Source: Candidatus Poribacteria bacterium (lineage in GTDB: Bacteria; Poribacteria; WGA-4E; WGA-3G). Taken from it: 64,000 nt of DNA. The position numbers were made by a program, and so were the translations under genes. Location: positions 257-64,256 of the forward strand of contig JAPPCZ010000023.1 of NCBI GenBank assembly GCA_028824685.1, read 5' to 3'. Shown piece after piece: positions 20,793 to 44,150 of this stretch. Numbering within the stretch: the first letter of the stretch is position 1; every line of letters begins with the position of its first letter. The notes below the pieces were generated by a model. That model was not told the origin of the DNA and made no database searches. It was given only the letters and a program-made list of their open reading frames with translations.

Positions 20793-20918
20793 AATCTTTA
20801 CACTGTAAGGCGAGGTTTCTGTGTCTTGCTCTACAGTGCTGGAAAAGTAGCATTTAAGTAAACTTGTTATTCTCAAAATAGTCTTATAGACATCTTGTTA
20901 CCCAAGGAAACTGACGCA

Positions 20919-22517: not shown

Positions 22518-22574
22518 ATAAAAAGGGATATGTTCTGATAAAATGCATATTTTTTAATTGAGGAGTCTTATGCA

Positions 22575-24800: not shown

Positions 24801-27800
24801 ATGATTAAGATATTAGATGAAAGCGATCCTCTCTTAACGGCTTACAAACCGTTGTACACACCTCTGACTCCAATAGTCCGTATCCTATTATTGCTATCTC
24901 TCCTACTGATTATCGGGTGCGGTCCATTAGGCATAACTGACCCACAATCCGATTCGCCCCACGCCGATTCCCGCTCAAATTCAAAACCCACAAAAACGTG
25001 GCCCATCAAACGCACACTTATCAGCAACGAAGTCAACTGTATTGCTGCCGATTCAGAGAATGTATGGATTGCAACAGCGAAAGGTGTCTCACGTTGGCTA
25101 CGCAGTGAAAACAGATGGCTTCACTATACGATGGAAAACGGATTAGCAAATGATATGGTCAACGCTGTTGCGGTTGATGGTAAATGGGTTTGGTTCGCTA
25201 CAGATGAAGGTGTGAGTCGATACGACAGCGAAACCGATGCCTTTTCAACCTTCCGTGACATTGACGGACTCGCAAGCGATCAGGTTTCCTCCATCGCTGT
25301 GGATGGCATCTACGTCTGGTTCGGAACATCTAACGGGCTGAACCGTTATGACAAAACAATTGATAGCTGGGCAGTCCGCACACGCAAAGATGGGTTAGTT
25401 AGCAGAATAATTACAACAATCGCAGTTGAGCCTGAGTATGTCTGGGTCGGCACTGATAGAGAAATTAACCCTGATCCGCATGGATGGGATGAAGATCCGA
25501 GATTCAGCAGAGGCGGTGTCAGCCGTTATCACCGAGACACAGATTCTTGGAACAACTATACAAGATCGGATGGCTTAATAGACAACGAAATTGCCACAAT
25601 TGCCGTAGATGACGACAGTGTTTGGTTTGGCACACAACATAGAGGCGTTAGTCAATACAATCAGGTTGACCAAACATTCGTGAAAACGTTCACCAAAACC
25701 GATCTGTTAAAAAGTAATTTCATCTCCTCAATCCGCTCTGACGGGTTTCAGGTTTGGTTTGGGACCGCCAATGCAGGCGTGCATCGTTTTATCAAACCTG
25801 TTAACACTTGGGTGCATTATACCAAAGCAGACGGATTGGCGAGTAATAATGTGAGTTGGATTACGACACAAGGCAATGATGTTTGGTTTGCAAGCAAAGA
25901 AGATGGCGTGAGCCGCTTTGATAAGGTTAGCGGTGAATGGACAATCTATAAACAAGCCGATTTTCTGGCGGATAACGATGTTCGGGATATAGCACGTGAT
26001 GCTGATGGAAACCTCTGGATAGCAACAGTCGCTGGTGTCTCTGTTTACAATCCCCAAACACGTAATTGGGAGGTGTTCTCTAAAGAAGATGGACTGCCAA
26101 CCCCTTATGTCATGTCAGTAGATGTAGCGTCCCAATCATCTGAATCTGACCTGAGCAAATTGAGCAAAATACCAAAAGGACAAATATGGATCGGCACAGC
26201 ACGAGGACTCGGTTCATGCACACATCTTGGTGGACAGTGGACATTTCACGGTCCCGCTCAAGGGGAAGCGTTTGTTACCGCTGTTGCCACTGGCAAGGTT
26301 TCAGATAATCCCAGTGACACAGGACAAATTTGGCTTGGAACGAATTTGGGCCCCGCGATGTATGACACAGACTCTCAGAAATGGACGCAACTTTCATTCT
26401 CAGAATCACCTCAAAATCCACTGATATTGTCTGTTCTTATCCATGATGGATATGTTTGGTTCGGCGGTGTAAAAGGCGTTTGGCGATATTCAGTTGCGGA
26501 TAAAAAGATGCATCGGGTTACCAAAGGACTTAAAAATCCTTACGTTAACGTGCTGCTTTCCGTAGACAATGTGGTTTGGGCAGGGACACAAGGAGGGCTC
26601 GCAAAATATGACAGTAAACAGCAGCGGTGGATACCTATTTCCTTAGTAACTAAATCGAAAGAAAAATCCCCTCCAAGTATTACAGCCCTCGCTTACCGAG
26701 AAGGTGTGCTTTGGATCGGCACACCGCAGGGATTAGGAAGTTACACGATTGCAACTGAAAAATGGAATTCCCTCAAAAAACCCTACAACATTCGTGACAT
26801 TGTGTGTGATCAAGATAAGAGGCTTTGGTTAGCAACATCTACCGGTCTCATTGAACATCACCTTCAGAATGGTGAAGAGATAACACACCAATCCCGTCCC
26901 GTCCGCGAGCCTTTAGTTGAAACGCGCGTTTCACAAATCAAATTTGATGGAGATTACATCTGGTTTTCTAACTGGGGAGCATCAAGAAATGGCGGAATTT
27001 TACGGTTTCACCGTCCAACAAAAACGTGGCAGCGTTTCACCCGATTGGATATTTTCCAGTCTACTCAGAAAAAAACGATGACAGTGTTGCGTTGGACTTA
27101 TGTAGATAAAGATGCCGTTTGGTTCACCACAGATTTTGGTGTACTTCGCTATGATAAAGCAAAAGATACCTGGCAACATTTTACGATGAAGGATGGACTT
27201 TCTGTAGACGATGTGGACAAGATTGCTGTCAGTGAAAAGAGTGTATGGATTGCCCCGATGATGGGTATGGAATTGAACCGTTACGATAAGGCATCAGGAA
27301 CGTGGGAGATTATCACGCAACCTGAAAGGCAAGAACATAGGGAAAGCTTAAGAGGATTTGCTGTTGATGGACCGGAGGTATGGTTCGGTTCAGGAGATGC
27401 ACTCACGCTTTACAATGATGATACGAAGGAGTGGAAGGAATATAGACCGAGAGATGGTTTAGCAGGCAGGGGTGCCGAATGGATTACAATAGACAAGGAT
27501 TTCGTCTGGGTTGCGCGATCCGAATGGGATAGAGGTAGCAACCGTCCCTTGTCACGATATGACAAAAAGACAAAGAAATGGGCAACATTCTCTACCAATG
27601 ACGTGCTTGCTGCAAAAACCATTAAGCGCATCATCGCAACAGAAAACGATGTTTGGATACAATACAGACCTTGGGACAATGCAGTTACTCGATACGATAG
27701 ACTCAACAAGGAGTGGACAACAATCACATCTGATCGTGGCACTCTTGAACTTGCCGCTGACAAAGACTATCTCTGGTTAGCCGCACCCAATGATGGACTT

Positions 27801-29003
27801 CGACGCTTTCATTTCGCTTCCGGCACCTGGACTTCGTTTAAAAATATTAAAGGGCTGTTGCATAACCATGTCGGTGAATATGCACTTGCTGTCGATGAAG
27901 ACTATGTATGGGTTGGAACAATCCGTGGCCTTTCCCGCTATGACAAAAAAAAGGAATCCTGGATGCCTCTTGCACCTTTGCCAACGCTTTCAGGACGTAC
28001 CGTCCGTACAGTAGATACAGATGAACGTTTCGTGTGGGTAGGCACAGATAGCGGATTATCTCGTTATGATAAAGATTTAGGCACATGGAAAAACTATAGG
28101 CAGACGGGCGGATCCGAGGAAATAGCAACACACAACGGACACTGGCACCGTCATAGACCTAAATCACGAGGCATGCTCTCCGATAACGCCGTCAGTTCTA
28201 TAGTCGTTGATGATCAATACGTTTGGGTAGGCACTCGAGATGGCGCGAATCGGTTTGATAAAATCGCACTTAGATGGGACCAATACAAAACCGAACATGG
28301 ATTACCCGCAAACAGTGTGACATCTGTAAGCACTGATGGCAACAACATCTGGGTCGGCACACATTCTGGGATAGGAAAATATCCACGAACCGCTGATGAC
28401 CTCAATGCCTGGATTGCTTATACTTCTGGCACTGAAATTCAACCTTCTGCCGTGTCCAAAGAGTTCGCTGAATCATTGGTTACTGATGAAATCTGGTGTA
28501 TCACGGCAAGCAAAAAACATGTCTGGGTTGGCACACGCCGAGGCGTAAGTAAATACGATATTGGTAGAGACATTTGGAAGACAATCACAGCGGAGGACGG
28601 TCTCGCAAGTGATGAAGTCAGTTGTATCGCCGTTGATGGAGACCGCATCTGGTTTGGCAGTGATCGTGGCGTGACATTTTACAATGAAGGAACTGAAGAG
28701 TGGCGTGCCTATACGACTAAAGAAGGTCTCGCAAGCGACAAGATTACGACTATCGGCGTGGATGGGACTGATGTATGGATCGGCACTTACAACGCAGGGA
28801 TTAGTCGGTACGACCAACTGAAAAATAACTGGACAACTTACACAAGGGAAGATGGTTTAGCGCATAATGGCATACTTTCTATGGCTATCGGTAATACGTA
28901 CGTCTGGTTCGGCACTTATCGAGGATTAAGTCGTTATGATAAACGTACAGGAATCTGGACAACCTTTACAGAGGCTTATGGACCAGAAGATATTTTGAGA
29001 TAG
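24801..29003 (+). CDS. giant lipoprotein composed of ~24 two-component-regulator-propeller (Reg_prop-like) repeats; no kinase or other output domain
   Basis: Lipobox LLIIGC. Repeating ~45-aa units (VW(F/I)GT..G(V/L)SRYD....W..YT..DGLAS(D/N).V.SIAVDG). Confidence 0.5.
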   Translation: MIKILDESDPLLTAYKPLYTPLTPIVRILLLLSLLLIIGCGPLGITDPQSDSPHADSRSNSKPTKTWPIKRTLISNEVNCIAADSENVWIATAKGVSRWLRSENRWLHYTMENGLANDMVNAVAVDGKWVWFATDEGVSRYDSETDAFSTFRDIDGLASDQVSSIAVDGIYVWFGTSNGLNRYDKTIDSWAVRTRKDGLVSRIITTIAVEPEYVWVGTDREINPDPHGWDEDPRFSRGGVSRYHRDTDSWNNYTRSDGLIDNEIATIAVDDDSVWFGTQHRGVSQYNQVDQTFVKTFTKTDLLKSNFISSIRSDGFQVWFGTANAGVHRFIKPVNTWVHYTKADGLASNNVSWITTQGNDVWFASKEDGVSRFDKVSGEWTIYKQADFLADNDVRDIARDADGNLWIATVAGVSVYNPQTRNWEVFSKEDGLPTPYVMSVDVASQSSESDLSKLSKIPKGQIWIGTARGLGSCTHLGGQWTFHGPAQGEAFVTAVATGKVSDNPSDTGQIWLGTNLGPAMYDTDSQKWTQLSFSESPQNPLILSVLIHDGYVWFGGVKGVWRYSVADKKMHRVTKGLKNPYVNVLLSVDNVVWAGTQGGLAKYDSKQQRWIPISLVTKSKEKSPPSITALAYREGVLWIGTPQGLGSYTIATEKWNSLKKPYNIRDIVCDQDKRLWLATSTGLIEHHLQNGEEITHQSRPVREPLVETRVSQIKFDGDYIWFSNWGASRNGGILRFHRPTKTWQRFTRLDIFQSTQKKTMTVLRWTYVDKDAVWFTTDFGVLRYDKAKDTWQHFTMKDGLSVDDVDKIAVSEKSVWIAPMMGMELNRYDKASGTWEIITQPERQEHRESLRGFAVDGPEVWFGSGDALTLYNDDTKEWKEYRPRDGLAGRGAEWITIDKDFVWVARSEWDRGSNRPLSRYDKKTKKWATFSTNDVLAAKTIKRIIATENDVWIQYRPWDNAVTRYDRLNKEWTTITSDRGTLELAADKDYLWLAAPNDGLRRFHFASGTWTSFKNIKGLLHNHVGEYALAVDEDYVWVGTIRGLSRYDKKKESWMPLAPLPTLSGRTVRTVDTDERFVWVGTDSGLSRYDKDLGTWKNYRQTGGSEEIATHNGHWHRHRPKSRGMLSDNAVSSIVVDDQYVWVGTRDGANRFDKIALRWDQYKTEHGLPANSVTSVSTDGNNIWVGTHSGIGKYPRTADDLNAWIAYTSGTEIQPSAVSKEFAESLVTDEIWCITASKKHVWVGTRRGVSKYDIGRDIWKTITAEDGLASDEVSCIAVDGDRIWFGSDRGVTFYNEGTEEWRAYTTKEGLASDKITTIGVDGTDVWIGTYNAGISRYDQLKNNWTTYTREDGLAHNGILSMAIGNTYVWFGTYRGLSRYDKRTGIWTTFTEAYGPEDILR

Positions 29004-29336: not shown

Positions 29337-31289
29337 ATGGACATAAAAACAGGCACCCGAAAATGTCTTCTCTGGTGCTTTTTTCTATTATCGTTAAACT
29401 TCTCCTCTATGTTCCACGCTGAAGCAGAAGATGTATACAGTCTGTTCGGCAAATTGTTCCTGTCTGGGCGCGTCGAATACGACTTCACAAACAGACGTAA
29501 CTTCCTTGCAGATACAGAGGAAGAACGAGTCAGACAAGACAATTTTGATTTTGACCGCCTCTTTCGGCGTGGCTTCCATAGTGTTTTGGTGATTGAGGAG
29601 ACCGCTGGTAGCGTGAAAAATATCTTGAGTCTTGGTGAAGTGCCAACGACTTTTACAAATTTCACCTTTGATCAGATTGACCTAAACGGCGTCCGTTGGG
29701 AGGTGCGTTCCAACTACACCGATTGGACTATCCTAATGGTACCAGGCACGCTCAATCGACTGAACGGTCAAGAAAGCAACATGGAAGGATCAGGTATCGG
29801 GTTACGCGAAGTTACAAAATTCGGTAAATCGCAGTTAGGACTCTCTTGGTATTTCCGTGAAACACCTGTTTGGGCGGTTGATATGGAAACCAATTTCGCC
29901 AATTATGGATTGAAGGCAGAGGTAGCGGTAACACCAAAAAACGCATTACAGAAAAACTTGCGTTCACGTTTCGACGCAACGACAACCGTGTTCAAAGCAT
30001 TCAGAACCCTTGGAGACACGCTCTTTCAAGCGGAGGCGTTTCGCATCGGTCCACGATTTGATGCCTCCCGCTCTGTCGGCGACAACGATGACCAGGACAG
30101 ATATTCCGATAATACATTTCCTGACCCACCTTCCCTGATTATTCCCGGTGACTTAGATAAAAACAATAACGGTATTTTCGACTACGAGGATGATATTCTG
30201 CTGTTTGATGTTGATGAGGATTTCCTTGATGAAACTGACCGAAACAACAACGGCATACGTGACGAAGAAGAAAACGATCAGGATCCAAATTACGAATTTG
30301 ATGTAGGATTGGAAGGTGTACGGCTTTTCATGAACCAAACAATGAGTCGTGAAAAGAGTGTCATTGACCTGGACCTTGGACTACAAATTGAGAAAAACCT
30401 AAAATTTCGAAATATCCCCACCTCCAGAAAAGCGTTCGTCAACATGATTTACAAGAAACAATTGCCTCGCGCTTCCTCACTTGTTTTTGAAAATGAACTT
30501 AAATTAGTAAAGGACAATATCCCTGACGAAACGTGGTATTATGCAGGATTTTTGGGCAGACAAGATGAAAGAATCTATCGGGCACAACCGGAAACACAAG
30601 AGATGGTGGAGGAAGGAGATCTGCAGTTTTTCTATGTTGATGGCGGAGTTGAAGTCGAAAAACGCCGCCCAGACCCCTTGCTAATGCAGAACGATCTGAT
30701 TAACACTGCCAAAATTACATGGGAATATCACGGTATAGACCGTATGATCACAACGGCTCGTGCCAAGCTGCAATACGATATAGATTTTGACGGTGATAAT
30801 GAACACTACGAAGTCGGCATTTTCAAAACCCTCTACCGACTACGACCTTCCAAGTCGTTGGAAATCAGTCCAATGTTTAAATACACTGTCCGGAACGGTT
30901 TCCGTATGGCAGAAGACCGGTTTGAATACCTAAAACTACAGGGAAGAGTTGACGATAGGGACATTTCACGCGATATCAGATTGCGTCAAATTGAACAAGC
31001 ACATGTGCGTGATATGACTCCGGCGCTTATTCTCAAGGTCGTGTATCAGTTCACAAAAACAATTAAACTCACCGGTGGTGGGCAAATTCTGCTGTTCAAT
31101 GATCTGCTGAAGGATGATAATGATTTCGTCCGCCAAGCTCTATTAGCAGAAATGGAAAAGAGTTTTTTCGCTTATCGAAAGCAGCTTTTTCTACATATCG
31201 GAGCGCGATACATAGACCAGCGAGCGATTGGGGATGTTAACGATCAAAACTTCATGGAAATTTTTGTGCGGGTCTTTGGAAAATTCTAA
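29337..31289 (+). CDS. secreted/outer-membrane protein with Asp-rich calcium-binding loops, paralog of 10619..13984; C-terminal Phe
   Basis: Signal peptide present. Asp-rich segment DLDKNNNGIFDYEDDILLFDVDEDFLDETDRNNNGIRDEEENDQD is homologous to the Asp-rich segment of 10619..13984. Ends ...RVFGKF. Confidence 0.4.
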   Translation: MDIKTGTRKCLLWCFFLLSLNFSSMFHAEAEDVYSLFGKLFLSGRVEYDFTNRRNFLADTEEERVRQDNFDFDRLFRRGFHSVLVIEETAGSVKNILSLGEVPTTFTNFTFDQIDLNGVRWEVRSNYTDWTILMVPGTLNRLNGQESNMEGSGIGLREVTKFGKSQLGLSWYFRETPVWAVDMETNFANYGLKAEVAVTPKNALQKNLRSRFDATTTVFKAFRTLGDTLFQAEAFRIGPRFDASRSVGDNDDQDRYSDNTFPDPPSLIIPGDLDKNNNGIFDYEDDILLFDVDEDFLDETDRNNNGIRDEEENDQDPNYEFDVGLEGVRLFMNQTMSREKSVIDLDLGLQIEKNLKFRNIPTSRKAFVNMIYKKQLPRASSLVFENELKLVKDNIPDETWYYAGFLGRQDERIYRAQPETQEMVEEGDLQFFYVDGGVEVEKRRPDPLLMQNDLINTAKITWEYHGIDRMITTARAKLQYDIDFDGDNEHYEVGIFKTLYRLRPSKSLEISPMFKYTVRNGFRMAEDRFEYLKLQGRVDDRDISRDIRLRQIEQAHVRDMTPALILKVVYQFTKTIKLTGGGQILLFNDLLKDDNDFVRQALLAEMEKSFFAYRKQLFLHIGARYIDQRAIGDVNDQNFMEIFVRVFGKF

Positions 31290-33044: not shown

Positions 33045-33090
33045 CTGTAGGAGCGACCTCCCGGTCGCGACCAGGAGGTCGCTCCTACAA
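33045..33090. repeat. perfect 46-bp palindrome, MITE family 1 (CTGTAGGAGCGACCTCCCGGTCGCGACCAGGAGGTCGCTCCTACAA)
   Basis: The arm tgtaggagcgacctcc is repeated as an exact reverse complement around the GGTCGCGACC centre. Confidence 0.65.
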
Positions 33091-33251: not shown

Positions 33252-33310
33252 TTGACAAACATATCTACAGGATATATAATACTATTGTTCCGTATTTAGA
33301 AATAGTATTT
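33252..33310 (+). promoter_or_regulatory. consensus sigma70 promoter (TTGACA-17-TATAAT) with overlapping palindromic operator, upstream of blaI
   Basis: TTGACA at 33252-33257, a 17-nt spacer, TATAAT at 33275-33280. Inverted repeat AATACTATT-N14-AATAGTATT (33279-33310) overlaps the -10 and +1 positions, as expected for an autoregulated BlaI-family repressor. Confidence 0.5.
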
Positions 33311-33412
33311 TAATATAGTATTTCAAGCACTTAATTGAGAACATTCGCGTTGATATTTTGTCTCATAGTTTAAGGAATTTACCCATAACCCTCCAGATGA
33401 GGATAGAATCAG

Positions 33413-33814: not shown

Positions 33815-36800
33815 ATGACTAAGCAAATCCTGCTTTCTTTACTTAACTGTTCATGGCAATGGGGATTATTAGGTGGTTTGACATGGCTTATCTCAAGACG
33901 TTTCCGTCGCACAAACAGCACAGCCCATCTGCTTTGGTTGCTGTTTCTACTCAGTTTACCAATTCTATTCGTTTTAAATCAGTTTGTGCCAGCAATTTCA
34001 ATCGGTAACACGGTGACTGAATTACCGAAAGCACAACCTGTAGAGATTTCAGGTTTAGCTGCACAGACTGCAGATATGTCAGAGATTTCATTCACTGAAA
34101 GCAACATGCAATCGCAGGAACGGACGGTTACTGGCAGCCAGTTCTCCTTTAATTGGACTACGACGAATCTAATACTCTGCATCTGGGCTATTGGGACACT
34201 TGCTATGTTAATGCGCGTTGCTCTTGGTTTGTATCGAATCCATCGACTCCATCGCACCGCAACAGTGGCTGATGGTGCATATCAGGCAGTCTGTAAACGC
34301 TTGGCTCAGAAACTGAACATAAATCGTCCGGTCACCGTCTGCTTCTCGGATCGGATAGTATCACCGATTTCATTTGGTTGGTTATCGCCCTACATTCTGA
34401 TTCCAAAAAAGTTAAATCTTGAGCAGTTTGAGTTGGTGGCAGCACACGAATTAGCGCATGTGCAAAGGTTGGATTGGTTAACAAATCTCTTTTCACATCT
34501 GGTTGGTGCTATTTTCTTTTTTCACCCGATTTACCATTTTCTCAACCGAAAACTTGTCCATCTACGGGAACGAATCTGTGATGATTGGGTTATCCAATTG
34601 ACAGGTGCAAGGAAAAATTATGCCCAATGTTTATTAGATATGGTTTACCACAAAGAAAAGTCCATCCCGCTAACTTTGGGGTTGAATCAACCAACACAAT
34701 TAGAATCCCGAATTAACTCCATTTTGAAAAATAATCGACAACTTGACTTGCAACCGAGGCGACGCTTGCGTGTGGTGGCAGTAACCTTACTTTTAACTTG
34801 TCTGCCTTTGCTTGCGATGGCACAGTTGGTCCCGTTGAGAACTGTTCAACTCTCACTATTCGCACAGACACCTCAGGAATCGGAAAAAGCGACTCAAAAA
34901 GTTGAAAAGAAGCGTGGTGAGCAGAAAAAACTTGCTGAAATGAAGGATAAGAAGGAAGACAAGGAAGACAAATCCATAAAGGTTTTGGACCCGTCAGCGT
35001 TTAATAAATCACAAGAAAACCGTCTGTACTCCGGACCGCAACCCGGTGAAAAACTTCCTCCGTTGAAGGTGACTGGCATTTCTGGCGAAATTGATGGCAA
35101 GACATTTGACATTACCACTGAGTCAGATGGGAAACCCCTCGTGTTGTTCTTGCAAGACACCAATGGAGTCGGTATAAAAGGGCTTGTTGGTGTGTCTAAT
35201 CTGCTCCTTAAAATTGATGCGTTCCAAAAAAGACATGGCAAAGCAATAGGTGCCGAAAAATCTAATCAAGGGCTCCAGATAGGTGTTGTGTTACTTGCAG
35301 ACGATCTTGAAACCTTGCCCGAATGGGCTTATAACATGTTAAAAACAGAGATCGCAAGTGATGTATTAACAGGGATATCTCCCGATGGTCGTGAAGGACC
35401 GGGAAGTTATGGACTGAACCGCAACGTAGCACAGACAGTCATTGTTGCTAAAGATGGGAAGGTGCTGCACAATTTTGCTTTCACACAACCGATGCTTTAT
35501 ACCGATCCACATTTCCTCGGTGCCATCGCACAAGCAATTGAAGTAGAACCCGCTACATTGGAAAAGTCGCTGAATAGCGCACAAACAGAACGTTCCGAAA
35601 GAAAGATTGTGAGGACCAGGTTAGTTGGCACAAGGTTTGATGGACTTCGAGATTCCTTTCTGAAACTTCATGATGCTGTCATGAACGGGAAAGTATCAAA
35701 AGAAGAGGCAGCAGAAAAGCTTAAAAAGCTGGGAATCACATGGAAAGAAGGCGAGGCACTTCTCAAGAAAGAACAGAACGGTGATAAGGCAATGGACAGA
35801 AAACAGCAATATGAAAATCGCCGTCAAGTGAGAATAGCGGACCCCAAAAATTTCAGCACATCCCAAGAAAAGCAGATATTTTCCGGACCGCAACCCGGTG
35901 AGAAACTTCCACCATTAAAGGCAACCGGTATAAGCGGTGTAGCAAAAGGTAAAACATTCGATTTTATTGCCAAAGCTGATGGACAACCGCTTGTGCTTCT
36001 GTTGCAAGACGAAAGTGGTGTAGGTTTGCGTGGGTTATACGATATTTCGCGTATGGTTGAAAAAATCTCCAATGAATCTAAGCAAAAACTACAGATGAGC
36101 GTTGTGTTTCTCAGCGATGATCCCGCCGCGTTGAAACAAATCACACGGCATGTACCAGAGAACGTTTTAGTCGGTATTTCTCCGGATGGTCGTGAGGGAC
36201 CAGGGAACTATGGACTGAACCGCAATGTAGCACAGACGATCATTATCGCTAAAGAGGGCAAAGTTCTCCATAACTTTGCCTTCACACAACCTTTGCTCTT
36301 TGCTGATCCACATGTCCTTGGTGCCATAGCAGCTGTAATTCAGGAACAACCAGAAACAGTCGCGAAATGGCTGAACGAAAAACCTGATGAAGACAAACGG
36401 ATGCAGCGTGATAGAGAAAAAATGGAACGCGAAGGGGAACGCGATCCTTCTCCAGAAGAACGCATCAGGCGCGATGGAGACCCAAAGGTGAGTCCTGAAG
36501 GTAGACGAATGGAACGCGAGGACAAACGTGATCCATCCCGAGAAGAACTCGTCAAGCGGTTCGACAAAGATGGCGATGGCAAATTGAATCGAGAAGAAGG
36601 TTTAGCAGCTCGCCGTGCTTTAGCAAATCGAGAGAATCAAAACCGATACCGCAATGCTCGTGTTGATGTAAAAGATCCCGCTGAGTTCAAAAAGACTCAG
36701 AAAAAGGAGCTTTTCTCTGGACCACAACCCGGCGAGACACTCCCAGAATTGAAGGTTAAGGGCATTAACGGTGAAACTAAAGGTAAAACGTATGATGTCA

Positions 36801-37567
36801 TCGCCAAGGCGGACGGACAAGTGCTTGTTCTCTTCCTCCAAGACGAAAGTGGTCTCGGTTTACGTGGGTTAGTTGGTTTTTCACGTTTACTCACTCAAAT
36901 CGCCGAAAAATCTAAACAGACAATGCTTATGAATGCTGTGTTTTTAGGTGACACACCAGATACTTTGGAGAATCAAGCCAGTAAGTTAATCCCGCATATT
37001 TCAAACGGTGTCTTACTCGGTATTTCTCCGGATGGTCGTGAAGGACCGGGCAGCTACGGTCTCAATCGCAGTGTGGCGCAGACAGTCATTGTCGCCAAAG
37101 ATGGAAAAGTGTTACACAACTTTGCTTTCACGCAACCAATGCTCCGTGCCGACCCGCATGTGCTTGGTGCTATCGGAGAAGCAATTGGGATAAAACCTGC
37201 CACGCTGGAAAAATGGTTGAACGCAAAAAATCCTGTAATCGAAATTAAAAACCCTACTGAAGGTGAAAAAACTGGCAAAATGCTCTTAAGCGGAACATTT
37301 GTATTAGACGGAAACGTTGTACACTTAGATGGAACCGTTGTACAGTTTGATGAATTGCTTACGTTCCTCCGTAACTTGCCTGAAGAACAAAAAGCTATGC
37401 TTATTACCCAATCTGGACCAGATGTGCCTCATGCACAGATTGTCAAAGTAATGGATATAGCAAAAGAGGCAGGTATTGATAAAATTGGATTCGGAATTAG
37501 TGGGGCTGAAAAGAAGCGAATGGACCCTGACAAAGCAAAGGAACACCGTAGCAAGGATTCCGATTAG
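33815..37567 (+). CDS. BlaR1-like M56 peptidase-domain membrane sensor fused to three ~280-aa tandem repeat modules, an EF-hand and a C-terminal ExbD/TolR-like segment
   Basis: TM helices then HELAHVQRLDW (M56 HEXXH). Three repeats FSGPQPGE(K/T)LP.LK..GI.G...GKT(F/Y)D...ISPDGREGPGSYGLNRNVAQTVIVAKDGKVLHNFAFTQP, with long near-identical DNA stretches. DKDGDGKLNREE is a canonical EF-hand loop. C-terminal segment VVQFDELLTFLRNL...KVMDIAKEAGIDKIGFG. Confidence 0.7.
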   Translation: MTKQILLSLLNCSWQWGLLGGLTWLISRRFRRTNSTAHLLWLLFLLSLPILFVLNQFVPAISIGNTVTELPKAQPVEISGLAAQTADMSEISFTESNMQSQERTVTGSQFSFNWTTTNLILCIWAIGTLAMLMRVALGLYRIHRLHRTATVADGAYQAVCKRLAQKLNINRPVTVCFSDRIVSPISFGWLSPYILIPKKLNLEQFELVAAHELAHVQRLDWLTNLFSHLVGAIFFFHPIYHFLNRKLVHLRERICDDWVIQLTGARKNYAQCLLDMVYHKEKSIPLTLGLNQPTQLESRINSILKNNRQLDLQPRRRLRVVAVTLLLTCLPLLAMAQLVPLRTVQLSLFAQTPQESEKATQKVEKKRGEQKKLAEMKDKKEDKEDKSIKVLDPSAFNKSQENRLYSGPQPGEKLPPLKVTGISGEIDGKTFDITTESDGKPLVLFLQDTNGVGIKGLVGVSNLLLKIDAFQKRHGKAIGAEKSNQGLQIGVVLLADDLETLPEWAYNMLKTEIASDVLTGISPDGREGPGSYGLNRNVAQTVIVAKDGKVLHNFAFTQPMLYTDPHFLGAIAQAIEVEPATLEKSLNSAQTERSERKIVRTRLVGTRFDGLRDSFLKLHDAVMNGKVSKEEAAEKLKKLGITWKEGEALLKKEQNGDKAMDRKQQYENRRQVRIADPKNFSTSQEKQIFSGPQPGEKLPPLKATGISGVAKGKTFDFIAKADGQPLVLLLQDESGVGLRGLYDISRMVEKISNESKQKLQMSVVFLSDDPAALKQITRHVPENVLVGISPDGREGPGNYGLNRNVAQTIIIAKEGKVLHNFAFTQPLLFADPHVLGAIAAVIQEQPETVAKWLNEKPDEDKRMQRDREKMEREGERDPSPEERIRRDGDPKVSPEGRRMEREDKRDPSREELVKRFDKDGDGKLNREEGLAARRALANRENQNRYRNARVDVKDPAEFKKTQKKELFSGPQPGETLPELKVKGINGETKGKTYDVIAKADGQVLVLFLQDESGLGLRGLVGFSRLLTQIAEKSKQTMLMNAVFLGDTPDTLENQASKLIPHISNGVLLGISPDGREGPGSYGLNRSVAQTVIVAKDGKVLHNFAFTQPMLRADPHVLGAIGEAIGIKPATLEKWLNAKNPVIEIKNPTEGEKTGKMLLSGTFVLDGNVVHLDGTVVQFDELLTFLRNLPEEQKAMLITQSGPDVPHAQIVKVMDIAKEAGIDKIGFGISGAEKKRMDPDKAKEHRSKDSD

Positions 37568-37586: not shown

Positions 37587-38948
37587 ATGAACGCAGTAAA
37601 ACGATGTGATGGTATCAGCCGCCGCGACTTTCTACGCGTTGGTGGATTGGCAGCACTCGGATTAGGATTAGGCGACTTTTTTCACCTGCAACGCGCCTTT
37701 GCAGGCAAAAATACGCTCACAGCAAAAGCAAAATCCTGTATCCTGATATGGCTGGATGGAGGTCCCAGTCATCTGGAAACTTTTGATCCAAAGCCAGATG
37801 CACCGCAAGAGGTTCGCGGGCCACTAAAGACTATTCCCACGAATGTAACGGGCGTGCGTATCAGTGAATGTTTGGAGCAAACAGCAGCCATTATGGATAA
37901 AATTGCTATCATTCGCTCAATGACATCACCGCTTGGTGAACACAGCCTCGGCACCCAATACCTGATGACAGGATATAAACCTACGCCTGCTTTGGAATAT
38001 CCGACTTTTGGTGCAACGGTTGCTTATGTCAGATCTCAAAATAGCCAAAACATTTCTGGAGATGCGCTGTCTGCTTTACCTCCTAACATTGCAGTTCCGA
38101 ATTTCACCGGTCAAGTATCGGGAAACGGATATTTACCGAGTGCCACACGCCAATTTTCTGTTGGTGGTGATGCCAAAAGGTCTGATTTTAAAGTTCGTGA
38201 TCTTGATTTTTATCAAGGTATTGATATTGATCGCCTTTCAAGACGAAGACAATTTGTCAACGCACTTAACGAATTCAGTAGTGCCAAAGATGCTGGCGCA
38301 AAATCAGTTTCGGACCCAGAGTTGGAACGTGCCTACAATCTTATTACATCACCCGAAGCCAAAGCGGCATTCACGCTTTCCGAAGAACCGCAAGAGGTGC
38401 GCCAGCGATATGGCACAGGCGGTGTGAACGGAATCGGGTTGAGTTGTTTATTGGCGCGACGACTTGTTGAAAGAGATGTGCCATTTGTGACAGTCAATCA
38501 TGCTGGTTGGGATACACATCAAGATATATTTAAACTCAAAGAACGTTACCCGACAGACCGAAATGCCCATCTACCATCACTTGATCGGGCACTCAGCGCG
38601 CTGATTCAAGACCTTACAGACAGGCGTATGTTAGATGAGACACTCGTGGTAGTTATGGGTGAGTTTGGTCGCACACCGAAGATTAACTCGCAAGGGGGAC
38701 GCGATCATTGGCCCAACGTGTTCAGTGTGATGCTGGCTGGCGGTGGTGTGCAAGGCGGGCAAATTATTGGCAGCAGCGATTCCCTTGGCGAATTTCCAAA
38801 GGAACGTCCTGTAACGCCATCGGATCTGTCAGCAACAATCTATACGTTACTCGGTATTGACCCAAGTTTAGAACTACATACCAGTGATGGTCGCCCTGTC
38901 CGTGTCGCTCCTGATGGTGCAAAAGTCGTTTTGGAATTGTTTGCATAA
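37587..38948 (+). CDS. DUF1501 family protein (sulfatase-like fold) with Tat signal
   Basis: Tat motif SRRDFLRVGGLAALG. DUF1501 core WLDGGPSHLETFDPKP. RBS GAGGAG before the ATG at 37587. The longer tool ORF from 37476 overlaps the upstream gene and is rejected. Confidence 0.75.
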   Translation: MNAVKRCDGISRRDFLRVGGLAALGLGLGDFFHLQRAFAGKNTLTAKAKSCILIWLDGGPSHLETFDPKPDAPQEVRGPLKTIPTNVTGVRISECLEQTAAIMDKIAIIRSMTSPLGEHSLGTQYLMTGYKPTPALEYPTFGATVAYVRSQNSQNISGDALSALPPNIAVPNFTGQVSGNGYLPSATRQFSVGGDAKRSDFKVRDLDFYQGIDIDRLSRRRQFVNALNEFSSAKDAGAKSVSDPELERAYNLITSPEAKAAFTLSEEPQEVRQRYGTGGVNGIGLSCLLARRLVERDVPFVTVNHAGWDTHQDIFKLKERYPTDRNAHLPSLDRALSALIQDLTDRRMLDETLVVVMGEFGRTPKINSQGGRDHWPNVFSVMLAGGGVQGGQIIGSSDSLGEFPKERPVTPSDLSATIYTLLGIDPSLELHTSDGRPVRVAPDGAKVVLELFA

Positions 38949-39021: not shown

Positions 39022-40368
39022 ATGAAACACATACACACAATAATTCTAACCATTATATTTCTCGGAGTGTTTGTTTTGTCTTACGCACAAGATGAGATGA
39101 AAGAGAATTATTGGAATCAGTTCCGTGGTCCGAATGGAGATGGTACGGTAACTTCCATTAACCTACCTATCGAATTTAACGAAACAAAGAACGTTCGCTG
39201 GAAAACACCAATTCACAATAAAGGCTATTCATCACCTGTTGTTTGGGGAAATCAGATTTGGGTGACAACCGCGCGTGAGGATGGAAGCGAACTTTTTGCT
39301 GTCTGTGTGGACTTGAATAGTGGCGACATCATATACGACATCAAGGTTTTTGATGTGTTGAAGCCGCAACTTGAACATCCCGATCTCAATAGTCATGCTT
39401 CTCCTACCCCTATTGTGGAGGATGGACGTATCTATGTTCATTATGGAACTTATGGCACTGCTTGTCTGGACACCAAAACGGGTGATAAACTTTGGGAACG
39501 AAGAAATCTCAAATGTGATCATCGGGTGCGTCCTGCCTCTTCGCCTATTATTGATGGTGAGACAATATTTCTGACATTCGATGGCGTTGATGTGCAGTTT
39601 ATTGCCGCACTGAACAAAAATACTGGTGACACCTTGTGGTTAGAACATAGAAAGGTTGATTCAGATTTTGAGGCTGTCCTCAGAGCGAAGGGCATTACCG
39701 ATACCGAAAAAACCAAAAAGGAAAAACCGAACGATAACAGGAAATCTTACGCAACGCCGGCAATCATCACATATAATGGAAAGAAGCAATTGGTGAGTCC
39801 CGCTGCAGAAGTCACAATTTCTTATGACCCGAAAACAGGTGATGAACTCTGGCGAATTCGGCATGAAGGATGGGGTTGGAACGTGGCATGCCGACCAATT
39901 TTTGCGCACAATCTCGTCTATTTTACTACCGGCATTGAAAAACGGTTAGTGGCGGTTGATCCTTCTGGCACAGGCGATATTACCGATACGCACATTGTTT
40001 GGAGCATCCGCAAGGGTGTACCTGAAATACCATCACCGCTGATTGTGAACGACTTAATGTTTATGGTCAACGAGAGCGGTGTAGCTTCTTGTGTAGATGC
40101 AAAGAATGGGAATCCTATATGGAAAGGGCGCCTCGGTGGAAAATATTGGGCATCACCTCTATATGCAGATGGAAAAATCTACTTTTTTAGCATGGACGGG
40201 AGAGTGTCAGTTATTTCTGCGGGACGGAAGTTCAAATTGCTTGCACAGAACGAATTTGATGGTGAATTCATCGCATCTGGTGCTGTCGCAGGCAATACGT
40301 TAATTCTACGTTCACTCACCCATCTATATTGTATTGAAGAACCAAATCCATCCGAGATTGAGGAATAA
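39022..40368 (+). CDS. secreted PQQ-like β-propeller repeat protein
   Basis: Signal peptide present. Repeated G(D).LWR/LWE motifs (GDKLWERRN, GDTLWLEHR, GDELWRIRH, NPIWKGRLGG) typical of PQQ/BamB-like propellers. Confidence 0.6.
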   Translation: MKHIHTIILTIIFLGVFVLSYAQDEMKENYWNQFRGPNGDGTVTSINLPIEFNETKNVRWKTPIHNKGYSSPVVWGNQIWVTTAREDGSELFAVCVDLNSGDIIYDIKVFDVLKPQLEHPDLNSHASPTPIVEDGRIYVHYGTYGTACLDTKTGDKLWERRNLKCDHRVRPASSPIIDGETIFLTFDGVDVQFIAALNKNTGDTLWLEHRKVDSDFEAVLRAKGITDTEKTKKEKPNDNRKSYATPAIITYNGKKQLVSPAAEVTISYDPKTGDELWRIRHEGWGWNVACRPIFAHNLVYFTTGIEKRLVAVDPSGTGDITDTHIVWSIRKGVPEIPSPLIVNDLMFMVNESGVASCVDAKNGNPIWKGRLGGKYWASPLYADGKIYFFSMDGRVSVISAGRKFKLLAQNEFDGEFIASGAVAGNTLILRSLTHLYCIEEPNPSEIEE

Positions 40369-40394: not shown

Positions 40395-42638
40395 ATGAAA
40401 GCAATTCAGTCAACCCTCATAACATTGACATTAACAGCTTTGCTTTTCTTGTATGGTTATGTATACCAAAATATATCCTTAGCAAACAACGATCAAACTA
40501 ACTTTGATACATTAAAACAAAACATCGCGAAACCGTCTGACCGTGTTGACTTTGAAAATGACTTGATACCGATTTTTACTAAGTTTGGGTGTAATGCGGG
40601 GGCATGCCACGGTTCAGCCGCTGGTAGGGGCGAGTTCAAGTTATCACTCTTTGGTGGAAATCCGCAATCAGACTATGAGACGATGGTCCGACAACTTGCT
40701 GGACGGCGTATCAATCTGATGCACCCGAAACAAAGCCTTGTCATCCTAAAACCGACAGCACAAACCAGCCATGGTGGCGGCCATGTTCTGGACGAAAATG
40801 GGGAAGCCGCACAATTACTCCACGACTGGATTCAACAAGGCGCACGTTATGAAACGCTGCGTCAGTTGGAACGCGTTGAAATATCACCACAAAAACAGGT
40901 TATAGCGAATCCCGCAAACCCTATCCAACTAAGTGCAAATGCTCATTTTTCAGATGGAACAATGAAAGATGTTACGCGATGGACTGTTTTTACGCCAGAG
41001 GATACCTCAGCGATTGAAATTGACGCAGCCACTGCCGTAGCCAAATTGCATCGCCGTGGTCGGCACATCATTCTTGCTCGCTATCTCACGGAAGTTGTCC
41101 CGATTGAACTTATCGCTCCTTTGAACGAAACACCCATAAAGAATAACCAAAAAAGGGACGAAACGCACATATCTTCTGGAACGGTTGATACAAGTATTGA
41201 TAGTGAAATTCTTAAATTGCTCTCAACGCTGCGGTTACCTGTGTCCCCAGCTGCCGATGATGCCACCTTCTTGCGTAGAGTGACGCTTGATCTCACTGGA
41301 CGTCTCCCAACGCCAGATGCAGTGACTGCATTTCTTGCAGATTCAGATACAGATAAACGGAAAACGTTGGTAGATACCTTACTTCAGTCGGATGAATTTA
41401 ACGAGTATTGGACACTGCAGTTAGCGAAGTTGCTACGGATTGGCGCACGGGATAGAAACACACAAGGCGCGTTTGTCTACCATCAATGGCTATCGGAACA
41501 GATTCGCGAAGGTGTTGGATATGATCAGGTAGCGCGTTCGGTTATTTTGGCAATAGGTGATTCCCACGAGGTCGGCCCGGCGAATTTTTACCGCACCGTT
41601 GATGGGCCGCGTGAACAAGCCGAATTCATGAGTGAACTCTTTATGGGAGCGCGACTGCGATGTGCAAACTGCCATAACCATCCGCTTGACAAGTGGACAC
41701 AGGACGACTATCACGGATTAGCGGCGATTTTTGCCAAAATGGAAACTGAACAGGTCGTCAAGGTAAAACAATCTGGTGAAATTATCCATCCCGCAACACG
41801 CGAAAAAGCTGCGCCGCGGATTCCCGGGGATCAGTTTTTGCCTACCAATGTCGCTGACGGTCGTCTCGAATTGGTGGACTGGCTAACAAGCGCAGATAAT
41901 CCGTATTTTGCCAAAGCCATCGTCAACCGATTGTGGAAGGCGATGATGGGACGCGGATTGGTCGAACCTGTTGACGATTTTCGGTCTACCAATCCTGCCA
42001 CGCATCCTGAATTGCTGACAACGTTGGCAGCTGATTTTGTGGCGCACGGCTACGACCTGAGACGGACCCTCAAGCGTATAACGCTTAGTGAGACTTACGA
42101 GCGTAGTTCAAACGCGCTTCCGCAAAACAAGGCAGATGACCGATTCTATTCTCATGCGCTACAGAAACCGCTTGCGCCAGAGGTGTTGGCTGATGCTATT
42201 TCGGATGTGCTCGGTGTGCCTGATATCTATGGAGATCAACCAGAAGGGACACGCGCTATCTCTCTGTTTAATCCGAATACCGAATCCGATGCACTGGATA
42301 TTCTTGGCAGATGTTCGCGTGAAACTTCATGTGAGAATTCTACTGAAGCAACGGATGGACTTCAACGTAAACTGCATCTGTTCAATGGCGACCTTCTCAA
42401 CGCACGCATCGGTGTTCCGAATAGTCGACTTGATAAGCTGATGTCAGATGGCAAATCACCGATGGAGATTGTGAATGAATTTTATCTCGCAGCGTTAAGT
42501 CGGCAACCAACAGATAAAGAGCAGCAGTTCTGGAAACAGCACATTGATATTGAGGCATCTGCCAATTCCCAACGAGCAGTCCTTGAAGATATGGTTTGGA
42601 GTCTACTAACTTGCAGTGAATTTGTAACCAATCACTAA
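40395..42638 (+). CDS. PSCyt2 (DUF1549) / Ig-like / PSD1 (DUF1553) domain protein
   Basis: FENDLIPIFTKFGCNAGACHGS (DUF1549 Cys motif) and ...RCANCHNHPLDKWTQDDYHGLAAIF (DUF1553 motif). Architecture typical of Planctomycetes/Verrucomicrobia. Confidence 0.75.
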   Translation: MKAIQSTLITLTLTALLFLYGYVYQNISLANNDQTNFDTLKQNIAKPSDRVDFENDLIPIFTKFGCNAGACHGSAAGRGEFKLSLFGGNPQSDYETMVRQLAGRRINLMHPKQSLVILKPTAQTSHGGGHVLDENGEAAQLLHDWIQQGARYETLRQLERVEISPQKQVIANPANPIQLSANAHFSDGTMKDVTRWTVFTPEDTSAIEIDAATAVAKLHRRGRHIILARYLTEVVPIELIAPLNETPIKNNQKRDETHISSGTVDTSIDSEILKLLSTLRLPVSPAADDATFLRRVTLDLTGRLPTPDAVTAFLADSDTDKRKTLVDTLLQSDEFNEYWTLQLAKLLRIGARDRNTQGAFVYHQWLSEQIREGVGYDQVARSVILAIGDSHEVGPANFYRTVDGPREQAEFMSELFMGARLRCANCHNHPLDKWTQDDYHGLAAIFAKMETEQVVKVKQSGEIIHPATREKAAPRIPGDQFLPTNVADGRLELVDWLTSADNPYFAKAIVNRLWKAMMGRGLVEPVDDFRSTNPATHPELLTTLAADFVAHGYDLRRTLKRITLSETYERSSNALPQNKADDRFYSHALQKPLAPEVLADAISDVLGVPDIYGDQPEGTRAISLFNPNTESDALDILGRCSRETSCENSTEATDGLQRKLHLFNGDLLNARIGVPNSRLDKLMSDGKSPMEIVNEFYLAALSRQPTDKEQQFWKQHIDIEASANSQRAVLEDMVWSLLTCSEFVTNH

Positions 42639-42797: not shown

Positions 42798-44150
42798 ATG
42801 AAGCGCGAGCAGCCCCCAAATTTAGCAGTACCTATCTTTAGTTTCATATTTGTCCTGATGGCTGTGTCCTTTGCTATCTCCGCAGATTCCAAAGCAGAAA
42901 TTGATTTTGAGAAACAGATTCTACCTATCCTTCAGAATCGCTGCTTCAGTTGCCACAGTGCGCCAAAGATTGATGCCGATGGGAACATCACGAAGCCAAA
43001 AGGAGATGTCCAACTGGATAGCGTCAAAGGTATTGAGGAGAGCAGGCACGGAGAGGTTATTATCGCAGGTGAACCTGATGATTCCCTTCTCTATCAACGT
43101 ATAACCTTGCCCGAAGGCAATACCGGCATTATGCCGCCGCCAGAGGAAGGCGATCCCTTGACGGAGCAGCAAACTGACCTTATACACAAGTGGATTGAAG
43201 ATGGGGCAAACTATGGTAATTGGAAAGGAAATCAATCTCAGATCAAACCATCAAGTGCCGATAACAATCCTCCCCAACTTACCGTCATGCCACCGATAAC
43301 TTCTCTTGCGTTTTCTCACGATGGAAAATCTGTTGTGGCATGTTCACAAGCGGGTTTGCAGGTTTTCGATTGGCCAACACTCAACCTACAGAAGATTATT
43401 AAGGTTCAATCTAATAACATTCACGATCTCGCGTTTTCATCTGATGGAAATCAGTTAGCTGTTGGCGGAGGGAATCCTGCAACCGAAGGCATCGTAGAGA
43501 TTTTTTCATGGCCTGAAGTAAAATCGCTGCGTGTACTAAAGAAACATCACGATTCAGTCACGGCAGTGGCGTGGCGAGATGAATCAGTTCTCGCCTCAGC
43601 GAGTTTGGACCGGCGTATTATCCTTTGGGACCTGCACACTGGGACTCCGATTCAAGACCTGAAAGGTCATTCAAAAGGAGTGTCATCCCTCTGTTTCCTG
43701 AATGATAAAGAAAAACTTGTGAGTACGGGAATAGATCAAAGTGTCCGCGTTTGGGATTTGACGTCTGGTGAACTGAGCCGAAGCATGAACAATCATACGC
43801 TGCCCGTGCATGACCTTGCACTGCGTCCGGGTGAGGCAGAGCTTCCTGTGATAGTCTCAGTAGGTGATGACCGTACCGTCCGATTCTGGCAGCCAACCAT
43901 TGGTAGAATGGTGAAGTTTGCACGGCTCAAGGTAGCACCACTTGACGTGGTATGGTTAGAAGATGGTTCAAAGGTTGTGGCATCTTGTGCCGATGGGGTT
44001 ATCCGTATCATTGACCCAGATTTGGTAGAGGTTACAGATAAAATTCCTGCCTTAAGCGGTTGGGCATATTCCCTAACCGTTCATCCCACAGACGGTAGCA
44101 TCGTTATCGGTGGACAGAATGGACAAATCAAACGGGTTATTCCTAAATAA
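42798..44150 (+). CDS. secreted PSCyt1 (planctomycete cytochrome-c-like CxxCH) domain protein fused to WD40 repeats
   Basis: ILQNRCFSCHSAPKIDADGN (PSCyt1 motif). Then WD40 blades (WDLHTGTP, VRVWDLTSGE, VRFWQPT). RBS GGAGA upstream. Confidence 0.65.
   Translation: MKREQPPNLAVPIFSFIFVLMAVSFAISADSKAEIDFEKQILPILQNRCFSCHSAPKIDADGNITKPKGDVQLDSVKGIEESRHGEVIIAGEPDDSLLYQRITLPEGNTGIMPPPEEGDPLTEQQTDLIHKWIEDGANYGNWKGNQSQIKPSSADNNPPQLTVMPPITSLAFSHDGKSVVACSQAGLQVFDWPTLNLQKIIKVQSNNIHDLAFSSDGNQLAVGGGNPATEGIVEIFSWPEVKSLRVLKKHHDSVTAVAWRDESVLASASLDRRIILWDLHTGTPIQDLKGHSKGVSSLCFLNDKEKLVSTGIDQSVRVWDLTSGELSRSMNNHTLPVHDLALRPGEAELPVIVSVGDDRTVRFWQPTIGRMVKFARLKVAPLDVVWLEDGSKVVASCADGVIRIIDPDLVEVTDKIPALSGWAYSLTVHPTDGSIVIGGQNGQIKRVIPK

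Follow-up and report, generated by a model that had tools for sequence, protein, structure and literature searches.

The closest described relatives of the system reported here are the BlaR1/MecR1–BlaI/MecI pairs of Staphylococcus aureus and Bacillus licheniformis. We analyzed a 64,000-nucleotide (nt) stretch of DNA from Candidatus Poribacteria, a sponge symbiont (the window; contig JAPPCZ010000023.1, positions 257 to 64,256), and in it a gene on the forward strand (33815–37567) whose 1250-amino acid (aa) product resembles BlaR1 and MecR1 in its M56 HExxH motif with a downstream Glu and in the extracytoplasmic domain that follows its last transmembrane (TM) helix. The gene also has a winged-helix BlaI-type gene directly upstream and a palindrome at the promoter, as in those systems. 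It differs from them in that there is no transpeptidase sensor, and ~905 aa comprising three predicted thioredoxin-fold modules, an EF-hand-type loop and an ExbD-like domain stand in its place. In addition, the likely target is a DUF1501/PSCyt gene cluster rather than a resistance gene, and the putative operator is not of the TACA/TGTA type. Overall, our data favor, with a probability that we put at about 55%, a BlaIR-family switch controlling the DUF1501/PSCyt cluster, whose sensor consists of three specialized copies of the cluster's own secreted thioredoxin-fold subunit. This reading is built on computed domain identities, the modeled fold, the lack of cysteines, the catalytic motif, synteny, conservation of the promoter and palindrome, and the old, position-specific character of the modules.

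A sensor other than a penicillin-binding domain had been considered unusual in the original prediction, a view that did not hold. A 2026 survey of ~15,000 M56 proteins in InterPro counted 254 architectures, of which the transpeptidase type made up only ~6%, and reported a BlaI homolog in the vicinity of ~96% of M56 proteins and a non-penicillin C-terminal region in most M56 proteins (PMC13492132). The general architecture of the Poribacteria protein is therefore not surprising, because the typical M56 protein has no penicillin sensor (PMC13492132). Non-canonical BlaIR systems, such as CenIR of Clostridioides difficile, the BlaR-like proteins of Mycobacterium tuberculosis and M. abscessus, and the M56-TonB_C proteins of Bacteroides, likewise combine M56 and BlaI with a C-terminus unrelated to penicillin-binding proteins. 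M56-TonB_C proteins also end in an envelope-contacting domain, TonB_C there and ExbD-like here (PMC13492132; PMC10350073). In contrast to these systems, the sensor region described here is composed of well-folded, repeated domains rather than short or disordered tails, and it can be traced to a specific neighboring gene system. Switches of the BlaIR family with undefined signals abound, and in most cases their sensors cannot be assigned, whereas here the sensor was traced to a conserved periplasmic family and a likely target operon.

The sensor gene is a single open reading frame (ORF) that starts with ATG and runs for 1250 codons without interruption. Its product, MDE0481593.1, is annotated as a "hypothetical protein" of a Poribacteria metagenome-assembled genome, and an identical protein is encoded on a second contig. 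The earlier assignment of this protein to the BlaR1-type M56 family was borne out by a Peptidase_M56 match over aa 21–302 (E = 3.7e-35, Pfam) and by the adjacent BlaI-type repressor gene. The M56 region aligned with the cryo-electron microscopy chains 8exs and 8exp of S. aureus BlaR1, residues 95–315, and H211, E212, H215 and E252 fell on BlaR1 residues 201, 202, 205 and 242 (8exs). We take the BlaR1 motif at residues 201–205 and residue 242 to be zinc ligands. The sensor protease looks catalytically intact because its HELAH motif and E252 coincide with these positions. Hydropathy peaks were found at aa 36–54, 115–137 and 320–338, the first N-terminal helix falling under the hydropathy threshold used, and together with the alignment to the TM and protease regions of BlaR1 they indicate a multi-pass topology with the sensor region after the last TM helix. 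By analogy with BlaR1, the ~905 aa past aa 338 would be extracytoplasmic; an extension of this kind had been predicted, but at 850 aa its size had been underestimated. The absence of a penicillin-binding sensor was confirmed, as the NCBIfam model blaR1_generic was covered only over positions 30–329 of 585 (94 bits versus a cut-off of 400), and the sensor protein had no Pfam match to a transpeptidase domain.

The extracytoplasmic region contains three copies of a module, which we refer to as MOD. As described in the original prediction, the motifs SGPQPGE (aa 406, 690 and 968), ISPDGREGPG (aa 521, 788 and 1070) and HNFAFTQP (aa 552, 819 and 1101) each occur three times. The repeat period is 278–284 aa, in keeping with the ~280 aa given there, but the folded core accounts for just 188–205 aa of each period and the remainder is highly charged linker. 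The linkers of 43, 79 and 90 aa contain 42–57% charged residues, in comparison to 22–23% in the modules (pI 5.3–8.8). The motif AVMNGKVSKEEAAEKL in the linker between modules 1 and 2 resembles the SHOCT-like C-terminal tails of stand-alone MOD homologs.

Searches with the MOD sequence against Pfam, NCBIfam and the Protein Data Bank (PDB) returned nothing significant. This is in agreement with the earlier description of a module of unknown function as far as sequence families are concerned, but a fold, of thioredoxin/redoxin-like type, could be assigned. The fold was revealed by a structure model only. An AlphaFold2 model of module 3 and the C-terminal tail, derived from a 60-sequence alignment, had a mean predicted local distance difference test (pLDDT) score of 87, with values of 91–98 (about 95) over module 3. 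Foldseek comparison of this model with the PDB retrieved thiol-disulfide oxidoreductases and peroxiredoxins (DsbE 3gl3, 4nmu, ResA 1su9/2h1g, 3kcm, Bcp 3drn/3hjp and an Aeropyrum peroxiredoxin). Matches of the DsbE/ResA type had E-values of ~2e-6 to 3e-5 and target-normalized TM-scores of 0.68–0.76, the small peroxiredoxins 3drn and 3hjp had target-normalized scores of 0.65–0.69, and larger peroxiredoxins scored ~0.42–0.58. Taken together, 3gl3, 4nmu, 1su9 and 3drn matched at E ~1e-6 to 1e-5 with target-normalized scores of 0.65–0.76. Identity was 9–20% over the Foldseek matches and 13–20% for the best-fitting oxidoreductases. Weak echoes were also detectable in sequence: of 60 family members, 3 matched AhpC-TSA (the best at E = 8e-4) and one matched Thioredoxin_8, and Redoxin matched homolog P0144. 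MOD is thus predicted to be a TlpA/ResA/peroxiredoxin-type thioredoxin fold with a redoxin-type N-terminal extension. It resembles TlpA, ResA, CcmG, DsbE and the peroxiredoxins in fold (target-normalized TM-score 0.72–0.76) and in periplasmic location, but it differs in having neither CXXC nor a peroxidatic Cys, in its other motifs, in identities of only 13–20% and in scoring under the Pfam thresholds.

The sensor protein has no cysteine after aa 329, and across the 60 sequences the family consensus has no conserved Cys and the stretch equivalent to CXXC is not conserved. What is conserved lies elsewhere: SGPQ is invariant, PGE almost so and a DD pair conserved; in the stretch DGREGPGxYGLxR the GPG and the last R are invariant and most remaining positions nearly so; and further conserved positions are F and, invariant or almost so, T, N, Q and DP. 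The MOD motifs SGPQPGE and DGREGPGSYGLNR differ from those of redoxins. From the order of secondary-structure elements, the conserved segments, including SGPQPGE/GREGPGSYGLNR, would flank the former active-site face, as the N-terminal "GxPAPxF"-like strand, the loop leading up to the cis-Pro position and the strand that follows. MOD appears to represent a new, unannotated, cysteine-free thioredoxin-fold family without a Pfam or NCBIfam entry. A scan of genome contigs confirmed at least 567 relatives among at least 599 pattern matches.

The three modules were proposed to have arisen by a recent triplication with long, near-identical nucleotide repeats. Repeated stretches do exist near 35380, 36175 and 37020 (35338–35574, 36139–36375 and 36985–37221), but their identity is 71–75%. 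The module cores are pairwise 58–62% identical in aa and 64–68% in nt, the longest exact nt match between modules is 20–25 nt, and only about half of the residues identical between modules use the same codon. The closest relatives found in a scan of species-representative genomes were all Candidatus Poribacteria, and in 17 three-module proteins from other Poribacteria modules 1, 2 and 3 were each closest to the module at the same position in the window protein. Two-module proteins mostly consisted of modules 1 and 3 (those of loci L037 and L045 of modules 1 and 2), and in the sole four-module protein module 2 was duplicated. A recent triplication is contradicted by the low nt identity, the short exact matches (at most 25 nt) and this positional orthology across Poribacteria. 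Because of the same-position similarity in the 17 proteins, the module multiplication is, as these alignments indicate, older than the divergence of these Poribacteria species, with each position conserved separately.

A search with a single module retrieved 143 proteins. Apart from fragmentary calls closely akin to the window protein, the matches listed were proteins of 190–323 aa, each comprising a signal peptide, a charged segment, a single MOD and a short tail of helical character (e.g., the SHOCT-like tail "GKLTREEAGEVYQAAFP"). The named stand-alone MOD proteins were mostly from Planctomycetota, with one from Poribacteria. We mapped the proteins neighboring the sensor in the window on 76 loci and took counts from 39 Poribacteria loci (with at least 6 kb downstream) and 19 loci from other taxa. 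The gene after MOD encoded DUF1501 in 37/39 Poribacteria loci; in the other taxa it encoded PSCyt2/PSD1 in 14/19 and DUF1501 in 4/19. DUF1501, PSCyt2/PSD1 and a WD40 protein were all present within 9 kb in 32 of the 39 Poribacteria loci and 15 of the 19 others, and BlaI together with M56 was present in 28/39 and 0/19, respectively. MOD is not a dedicated sensor module and is instead a stand-alone periplasmic component of the DUF1501/PSCyt cluster, which lies directly downstream of the sensor gene and had been overlooked. Both the tight linkage of the MOD family with this cluster and the Poribacteria-specific recruitment of MOD, in 1–4 positionally conserved copies, as a BlaIR sensor appear to be new. 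The M56-MOD fusions had one to four modules, with or without the ExbD-like tail, and some ended in a SHOCT-like tail. One apparent stand-alone MOD-ExbD gene, P0007 (locus L001, 8001–8951) of another Poribacteria genome, was set aside: it has no signal peptide, lies between two copies of a duplicated 678-aa gene and is probably an orphan fragment, the remnant of a sensor gene. Five contigs binned as Gammaproteobacteria, Acidiferrobacterales or Alcaligenaceae (L053, L057, L065, L067 and L069) carried a planctomycete-type MOD-PSCyt2/PSD1-DUF1501-WD40 cassette, some with paired EF-hands, which suggests mis-binning or horizontal transfer.

The DUF1501 gene begins 19 nt past the stop codon of the sensor gene, and GAGGAG precedes its start. 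The genes for BlaI, the sensor, DUF1501, a PQQ propeller protein, PSCyt2/PSD1 and PSCyt1-WD40 share a strand and are separated by 3, 19, 73, 26 and 159 nt. Two terminator-like matches were found on the plus strand, both within coding sequence and none intergenic. Co-transcription from blaI through the PSCyt1-WD40 gene would fit this arrangement. The PQQ propeller gene occurred at the equivalent position in many, but not all, Poribacteria loci. The PSCyt2/PSD1 protein has a CxxCH motif at aa 423; its first 270 aa had no Pfam match, and an N-terminal GCNAGACHG (C-x4-CH) stands where related proteins have the CxxCH of PSCyt1.

A four-gene cluster of this kind was described in the Planctomycetes-Verrucomicrobia-Chlamydiae (PVC) group by Kamneva et al. 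2012, who proposed an electron-transport-related but unknown function (PMC3542564), and He et al. 2017 stated that nothing is known on the function of PSCyt genes (PMC5615132). The twin-arginine translocation (TAT)-DUF1501, PSCyt2/PSD1 and PSCyt1/WD40 genes of the window match three of the four cluster genes (PMC3542564). MOD may plausibly correspond to gene 2, a signal-peptide protein "with conserved regions without characterized signatures" (PMC3542564); no PPC-domain signal was found in MOD. The Poribacteria locus differs from the published account in that neither a thioredoxin-fold component nor BlaIR control was described there (PMC3542564). In Planctomycetes, Verrucomicrobia and Poribacteria, few gene modules are as expanded and as little understood as the DUF1501, PSCyt2/PSD1 and PSCyt1-WD40 genes, and a cysteine-free thioredoxin-fold partner together with a dedicated regulator offers two handles on their function, through binding assays and a promoter reporter.

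The features of the locus are collected in Table 1.

Table 1. Features of the sensor gene and its neighbors, with positions in the window.
Feature	Position (nt)	Strand	Basis
Sigma-70 promoter TTGACA-17 nt-TATAAT, upstream of blaI	33252..33280	+	Sole 12/12 match in 29-46 kb
Putative BlaI operator	33279..33324	+	Palindrome ATACTAT-N16-ATAGTAT (33279-33308) and second ATAGTAT half-site 13 nt downstream
BlaI/MecI-type winged-helix repressor, 132 aa	33413..33811	+	Pfam Penicillinase_R E=6.9e-32
M56 transmembrane zinc-protease region, aa 1-345	33815..34849	+	Pfam PF05569 E=3.7e-35; BlaR1 alignment
M56 active site H211-E212-x-x-H215 (HELAH); E252	34445-34459; 34568-34570	+	
Last TM helix (TM4), aa 320-338	34772-34828	+	Hydropathy
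Linker 0, charged, Lys/Glu-rich, aa 346-388	34850..34978	+	51% charged residues
Module 1, predicted cysteine-free thioredoxin-fold domain, aa 389-593	34979..35593	+	Repeat alignment; closest to first modules of other Poribacteria
Linker 1-2, aa 594-672	35594..35830	+	Helix-loop-helix motif AVMNGKVSKEEAAEKL at 35675-35722
Module 2, predicted cysteine-free thioredoxin-fold domain, aa 673-860	35831..36394	+	Repeat alignment; positional orthology
Linker 2-3, Arg/Asp/Glu-rich, aa 861-950	36395..36664	+	Bears EF-hand-like loop DKDGDGKLNREE
Module 3, predicted cysteine-free thioredoxin-fold domain, aa 951-1142	36665..37240	+	AlphaFold2 pLDDT ~91-98; Foldseek
ExbD/TolR-like periplasmic domain, aa 1143-1250	37241..37567	+	Best match aa 1166-1227, nt 37310-37495
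DUF1501 protein with twin-arginine signal SRRDFL	37587..38948	+	Pfam DUF1501 E=4.6e-104; weak TAT_signal match
Secreted PQQ/BamB-like beta-propeller protein	39022..40368	+	Pfam PQQ_2 E=8e-25
PSCyt2 (DUF1549) / PSD1 (DUF1553) protein	40395..42638	+	Pfam E ~1e-41 for each domain
PSCyt1 (CxxCH) + WD40 propeller protein	42798..44150	+	Pfam PSCyt1 E=2.9e-9 (N-terminus) and WD40; CxxCH at aa 49

The blaI stop codon is 3 nt before the M56 start. The 132-aa repressor aligned over its full length with MecI (1sd6, E = 1.4e-11), and its NCBI annotation is BlaI/MecI/CopY family regulator. A CopY-type metal repressor was rejected, as the C-terminus (...LINDYQPEEISEIQHHKE) has no Cys and no CxCxxxxCxC motif, and the NCBIfam model CopY_TcrY scored 73 bits versus a cut-off of 122. 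In the MecI alignment, the Asn of the MecI cleavage site, which we take to be N101-F102, is conserved in the repressor, with Thr as the next residue. The palindrome upstream of blaI extends across both the -10 box and the probable start of transcription; its exact sequence occurs once in the window, and a search for further copies was negative. Both promoter boxes, TTGACA and TATAAT, were kept in ~24 Poribacteria blaI upstream regions. An inverted repeat at 23-nt spacing was present in most of the 32 such regions, and in most of these loci promoter and palindrome were conserved in position and sequence. BlaI probably binds the palindrome, which would then function as its operator. A scan of 31–46 kb of the window with Rfam gave no matches.

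An EF-hand-like loop, DKDGDGKLNREE (aa 917–928, nt 36563–36598), was present as predicted and lies in the linker between modules 2 and 3, although its Pfam match (E ~0.01) is under the cut-off. The loop, the only one in the sensor, fits the 12-residue EF-hand pattern save for the residue after the final Glu. Its context, xVKRFDKDGDGKLNxEEG, was kept in most Poribacteria orthologs and was also seen in stand-alone planctomycete MOD proteins; several Poribacteria orthologs have no such loop. Some relatives have paired EF-hand loops, and the EF-hand matches of homolog P0141 exceed the Pfam cut-off. Judged from sequence, the loop is a genuine, recurring accessory motif and a putative Ca2+ site.

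An ExbD/TolR-like C-terminal segment was also present as predicted, although the Pfam ExbD match of the tail alone reached 24.0 bits (E = 4.3e-5) versus a cut-off of 25.4. A profile of four tails searched against the PDB had ExbD periplasmic domains as all six of its best matches (E = 2e-3 to 9e-3), with TolR lower down, and Pfam ExbD matches in orthologs reached E = 1.3e-7 (6e-14 in P0122, an M56 relative with leucine-rich repeats). The tail is thus predicted to be a periplasmic domain of the ExbD type from which the TM helix of ExbD is missing. It resembles the periplasmic domains of ExbD and TolR in its Pfam and PDB matches, but it differs from those proteins in that it has no N-terminal TM helix with the conserved Asp, has no ExbB or TonB among the 17 neighboring ORFs scanned, and forms the C-terminal tip of a large sensor. 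Within the tail, a tandem 21-nt (7-aa) duplication, LDGNVVH/LDGTVVQ, was noted at 37304–37345 as part of a 13-aa insertion that is missing from three orthologous tails.

By analogy with BlaR1/BlaI, we propose that the MOD array, possibly aided by the Ca loop and the ExbD-like tip, would bind either a ligand or a protein partner from the DUF1501/PSCyt machinery, and that the signal would pass via TM4 to activate the cytoplasmic Zn site. The protease would then cleave BlaI sitting on the palindrome that overlaps the -10 box in the blaI promoter, and the operon blaI-blaR-DUF1501-PQQ-PSCyt2/PSD1-PSCyt1/WD40 would be derepressed. In this scheme, we infer that MOD binds a ligand, that BlaI is cleaved, that the palindrome acts as operator and that the genes are co-transcribed. 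The input is likely a protein partner of the DUF1501/PSCyt machinery or one of its substrates, and the Ca loop and ExbD-like tip may tune or anchor the MOD array. More tentatively, it is possible that MOD is the subunit with which the PVC-specific DUF1501/PSCyt machinery recognizes a ligand or partner, and that Poribacteria coupled three specialized copies of MOD to a BlaR-type protease, which would place induction of the cluster under the control of its own substrate or of its assembly state. If this were true, the sensor would be a natural reporter for what the machinery acts on.

Several observations weigh against a switch of this kind. In about ten Poribacteria loci the MOD array has only a signal anchor, which corresponds by homology to TM4 and the residues that come after it, and neither BlaI nor M56 is present. 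In three other loci, L012 (8843–10843), L036 (8648–10738) and L023 (8945–10867), in-frame deletions have removed M56 and kept the MOD array, joining an N-terminus that begins MTKQI... to the TM4 region. The blaI gene was retained in L012 and L036, where the deletion would leave the repressor without its protease, and was lost in L023. Because loci without M56 retain the array, the MOD array works without the protease, and the regulation is dispensable and evolutionarily labile. The palindrome TACTAT...ATAGTA is unlike the classical TACA/TGTA BlaI/MecI box, and its candidate role as operator is argued from position and conservation only. The EF-hand and ExbD matches in the sensor protein are under the curated thresholds, the placement of the conserved MOD residues on the canonical thioredoxin active-site face was deduced from topology and not from coordinates, and the host organism is uncultivated.

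The variants without M56 lend themselves to another explanation, namely that the MOD array is a structural periplasmic subunit of the DUF1501/PSCyt machinery, which M56 would mainly serve to anchor in the inner membrane while the ExbD-like tip would attach it to peptidoglycan or the outer membrane, with any BlaI/M56 signaling answering a different cue, such as envelope stress or contact through the ExbD-like domain, as proposed for M56-TonB_C. Such a scaffold would account for variants at the equivalent genomic position that hold just the TM4-like signal anchor, the MOD array and the ExbD tail, for MOD being a free secreted protein in Planctomycetota, and for the long charged linkers, which are like periplasm-spanning spacers; furthermore, only one M56 architecture is more frequent than M56 with TonB_C (PMC13492132; PMC10350073). 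However, M56 retains its full set of catalytic residues, the M56 form comes with BlaI and with a conserved promoter and palindrome in 28 genomes, the domain after TM4 of BlaR1 is the sensor, and the 17 neighboring ORFs scanned included no ExbB or TonB gene. We consider a scaffold unlikely, if still worth keeping in mind. A Ca2+-responsive switch, in which the EF-hand loop would act with three tandem thioredoxin folds reminiscent of calsequestrin, is more doubtful again. The recurrence of DKDGDGKLNxEE in most orthologs and in stand-alone homologs would suit it, as would the paired or supra-threshold EF-hands of some relatives, but there is one loop in 905 aa, it scores under the Pfam threshold in the sensor protein, several Poribacteria orthologs are missing it, and the most conserved residues are in MOD and not in the linker. 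A calsequestrin-like Ca buffer is also unlikely, as the modules, at the pI and charge given above, are not acidic.

The resemblance of the fold to ResA, DsbE and peroxiredoxins, and the CxxCH-motif proteins encoded by adjacent genes, could indicate that the modules are active thiol-disulfide oxidoreductases or peroxiredoxins with, for example, a CcmG/ResA-like role for those neighbors. Thiol redox chemistry is excluded for MOD because the sensor has no Cys after aa 329 and none is conserved in the family, so neither a catalytic CXXC nor a peroxidatic Cys is available; the CXXC-equivalent stretch is not conserved, the Pfam redoxin models stay under threshold, and we give an active redoxin hardly any weight. 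Non-catalytic binding of the CxxCH-motif neighbors by MOD is possible. Slighter still is the chance that the copy number results from mis-assembly, or that fusion or decay has made the long ORF a pseudogene. The sequence does come from a metagenome-assembled genome, and split or truncated relatives exist (L007, L013, L037, L042 and the orphan fragment P0007 in L001), but exact identity between modules of at most 25 nt is too short for assembly collapse or expansion, and the modules are too diverged. Moreover, the order of modules 1, 2 and 3 is the same in 17 genomes, several of them chromosome-level assemblies, and the 1250-codon frame is open and its protein recurs identically on a second contig. 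The copy number is thus not an assembly artefact, a possibility that had been raised with the original prediction, and a switch with a MOD-based sensor remains the reading that we favor.

Additional features were noted in the window beyond the switch and its cluster. Large WD40-repeat proteins (540, 703, 450 and 636 aa) are unusually dense, at 20895–24686, 42798–44150 and 53320–55230, and a 1400-aa Reg_prop/PorZ-like propeller protein is encoded at 24801–29003. At 29337–31289 there is a gene for a 650-aa secreted protein without a Pfam or NCBIfam match, which is extremely conserved in Poribacteria, at 72–100% identity in the 120 homologs listed and whose gene precedes that of the sensor or MOD protein in most, by a wide margin, of the Poribacteria loci covering the region. 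This protein has Asp/Asn-rich, Ca-binding-like repeats (DKNNNGTFDYEDD, DRNNNGIRDEEEND) and a C-terminal Phe, as in an outer-membrane barrel; an AlphaFold model made with 21 orthologs had a pLDDT of 37 and was not used. Finally, a 44-nt near-perfect palindrome (TGTAGGAGCGACCTCCCGGTCG / CGACCAGGAGGTCGCTCCTACA) is situated at 33046–33089, between a LamG gene and the blaI promoter. One of its arms recurs with 1 mismatch, and with no inverted partner, at 4396–4417, where none would be expected by chance, and the palindrome may be a REP-like repeated element.

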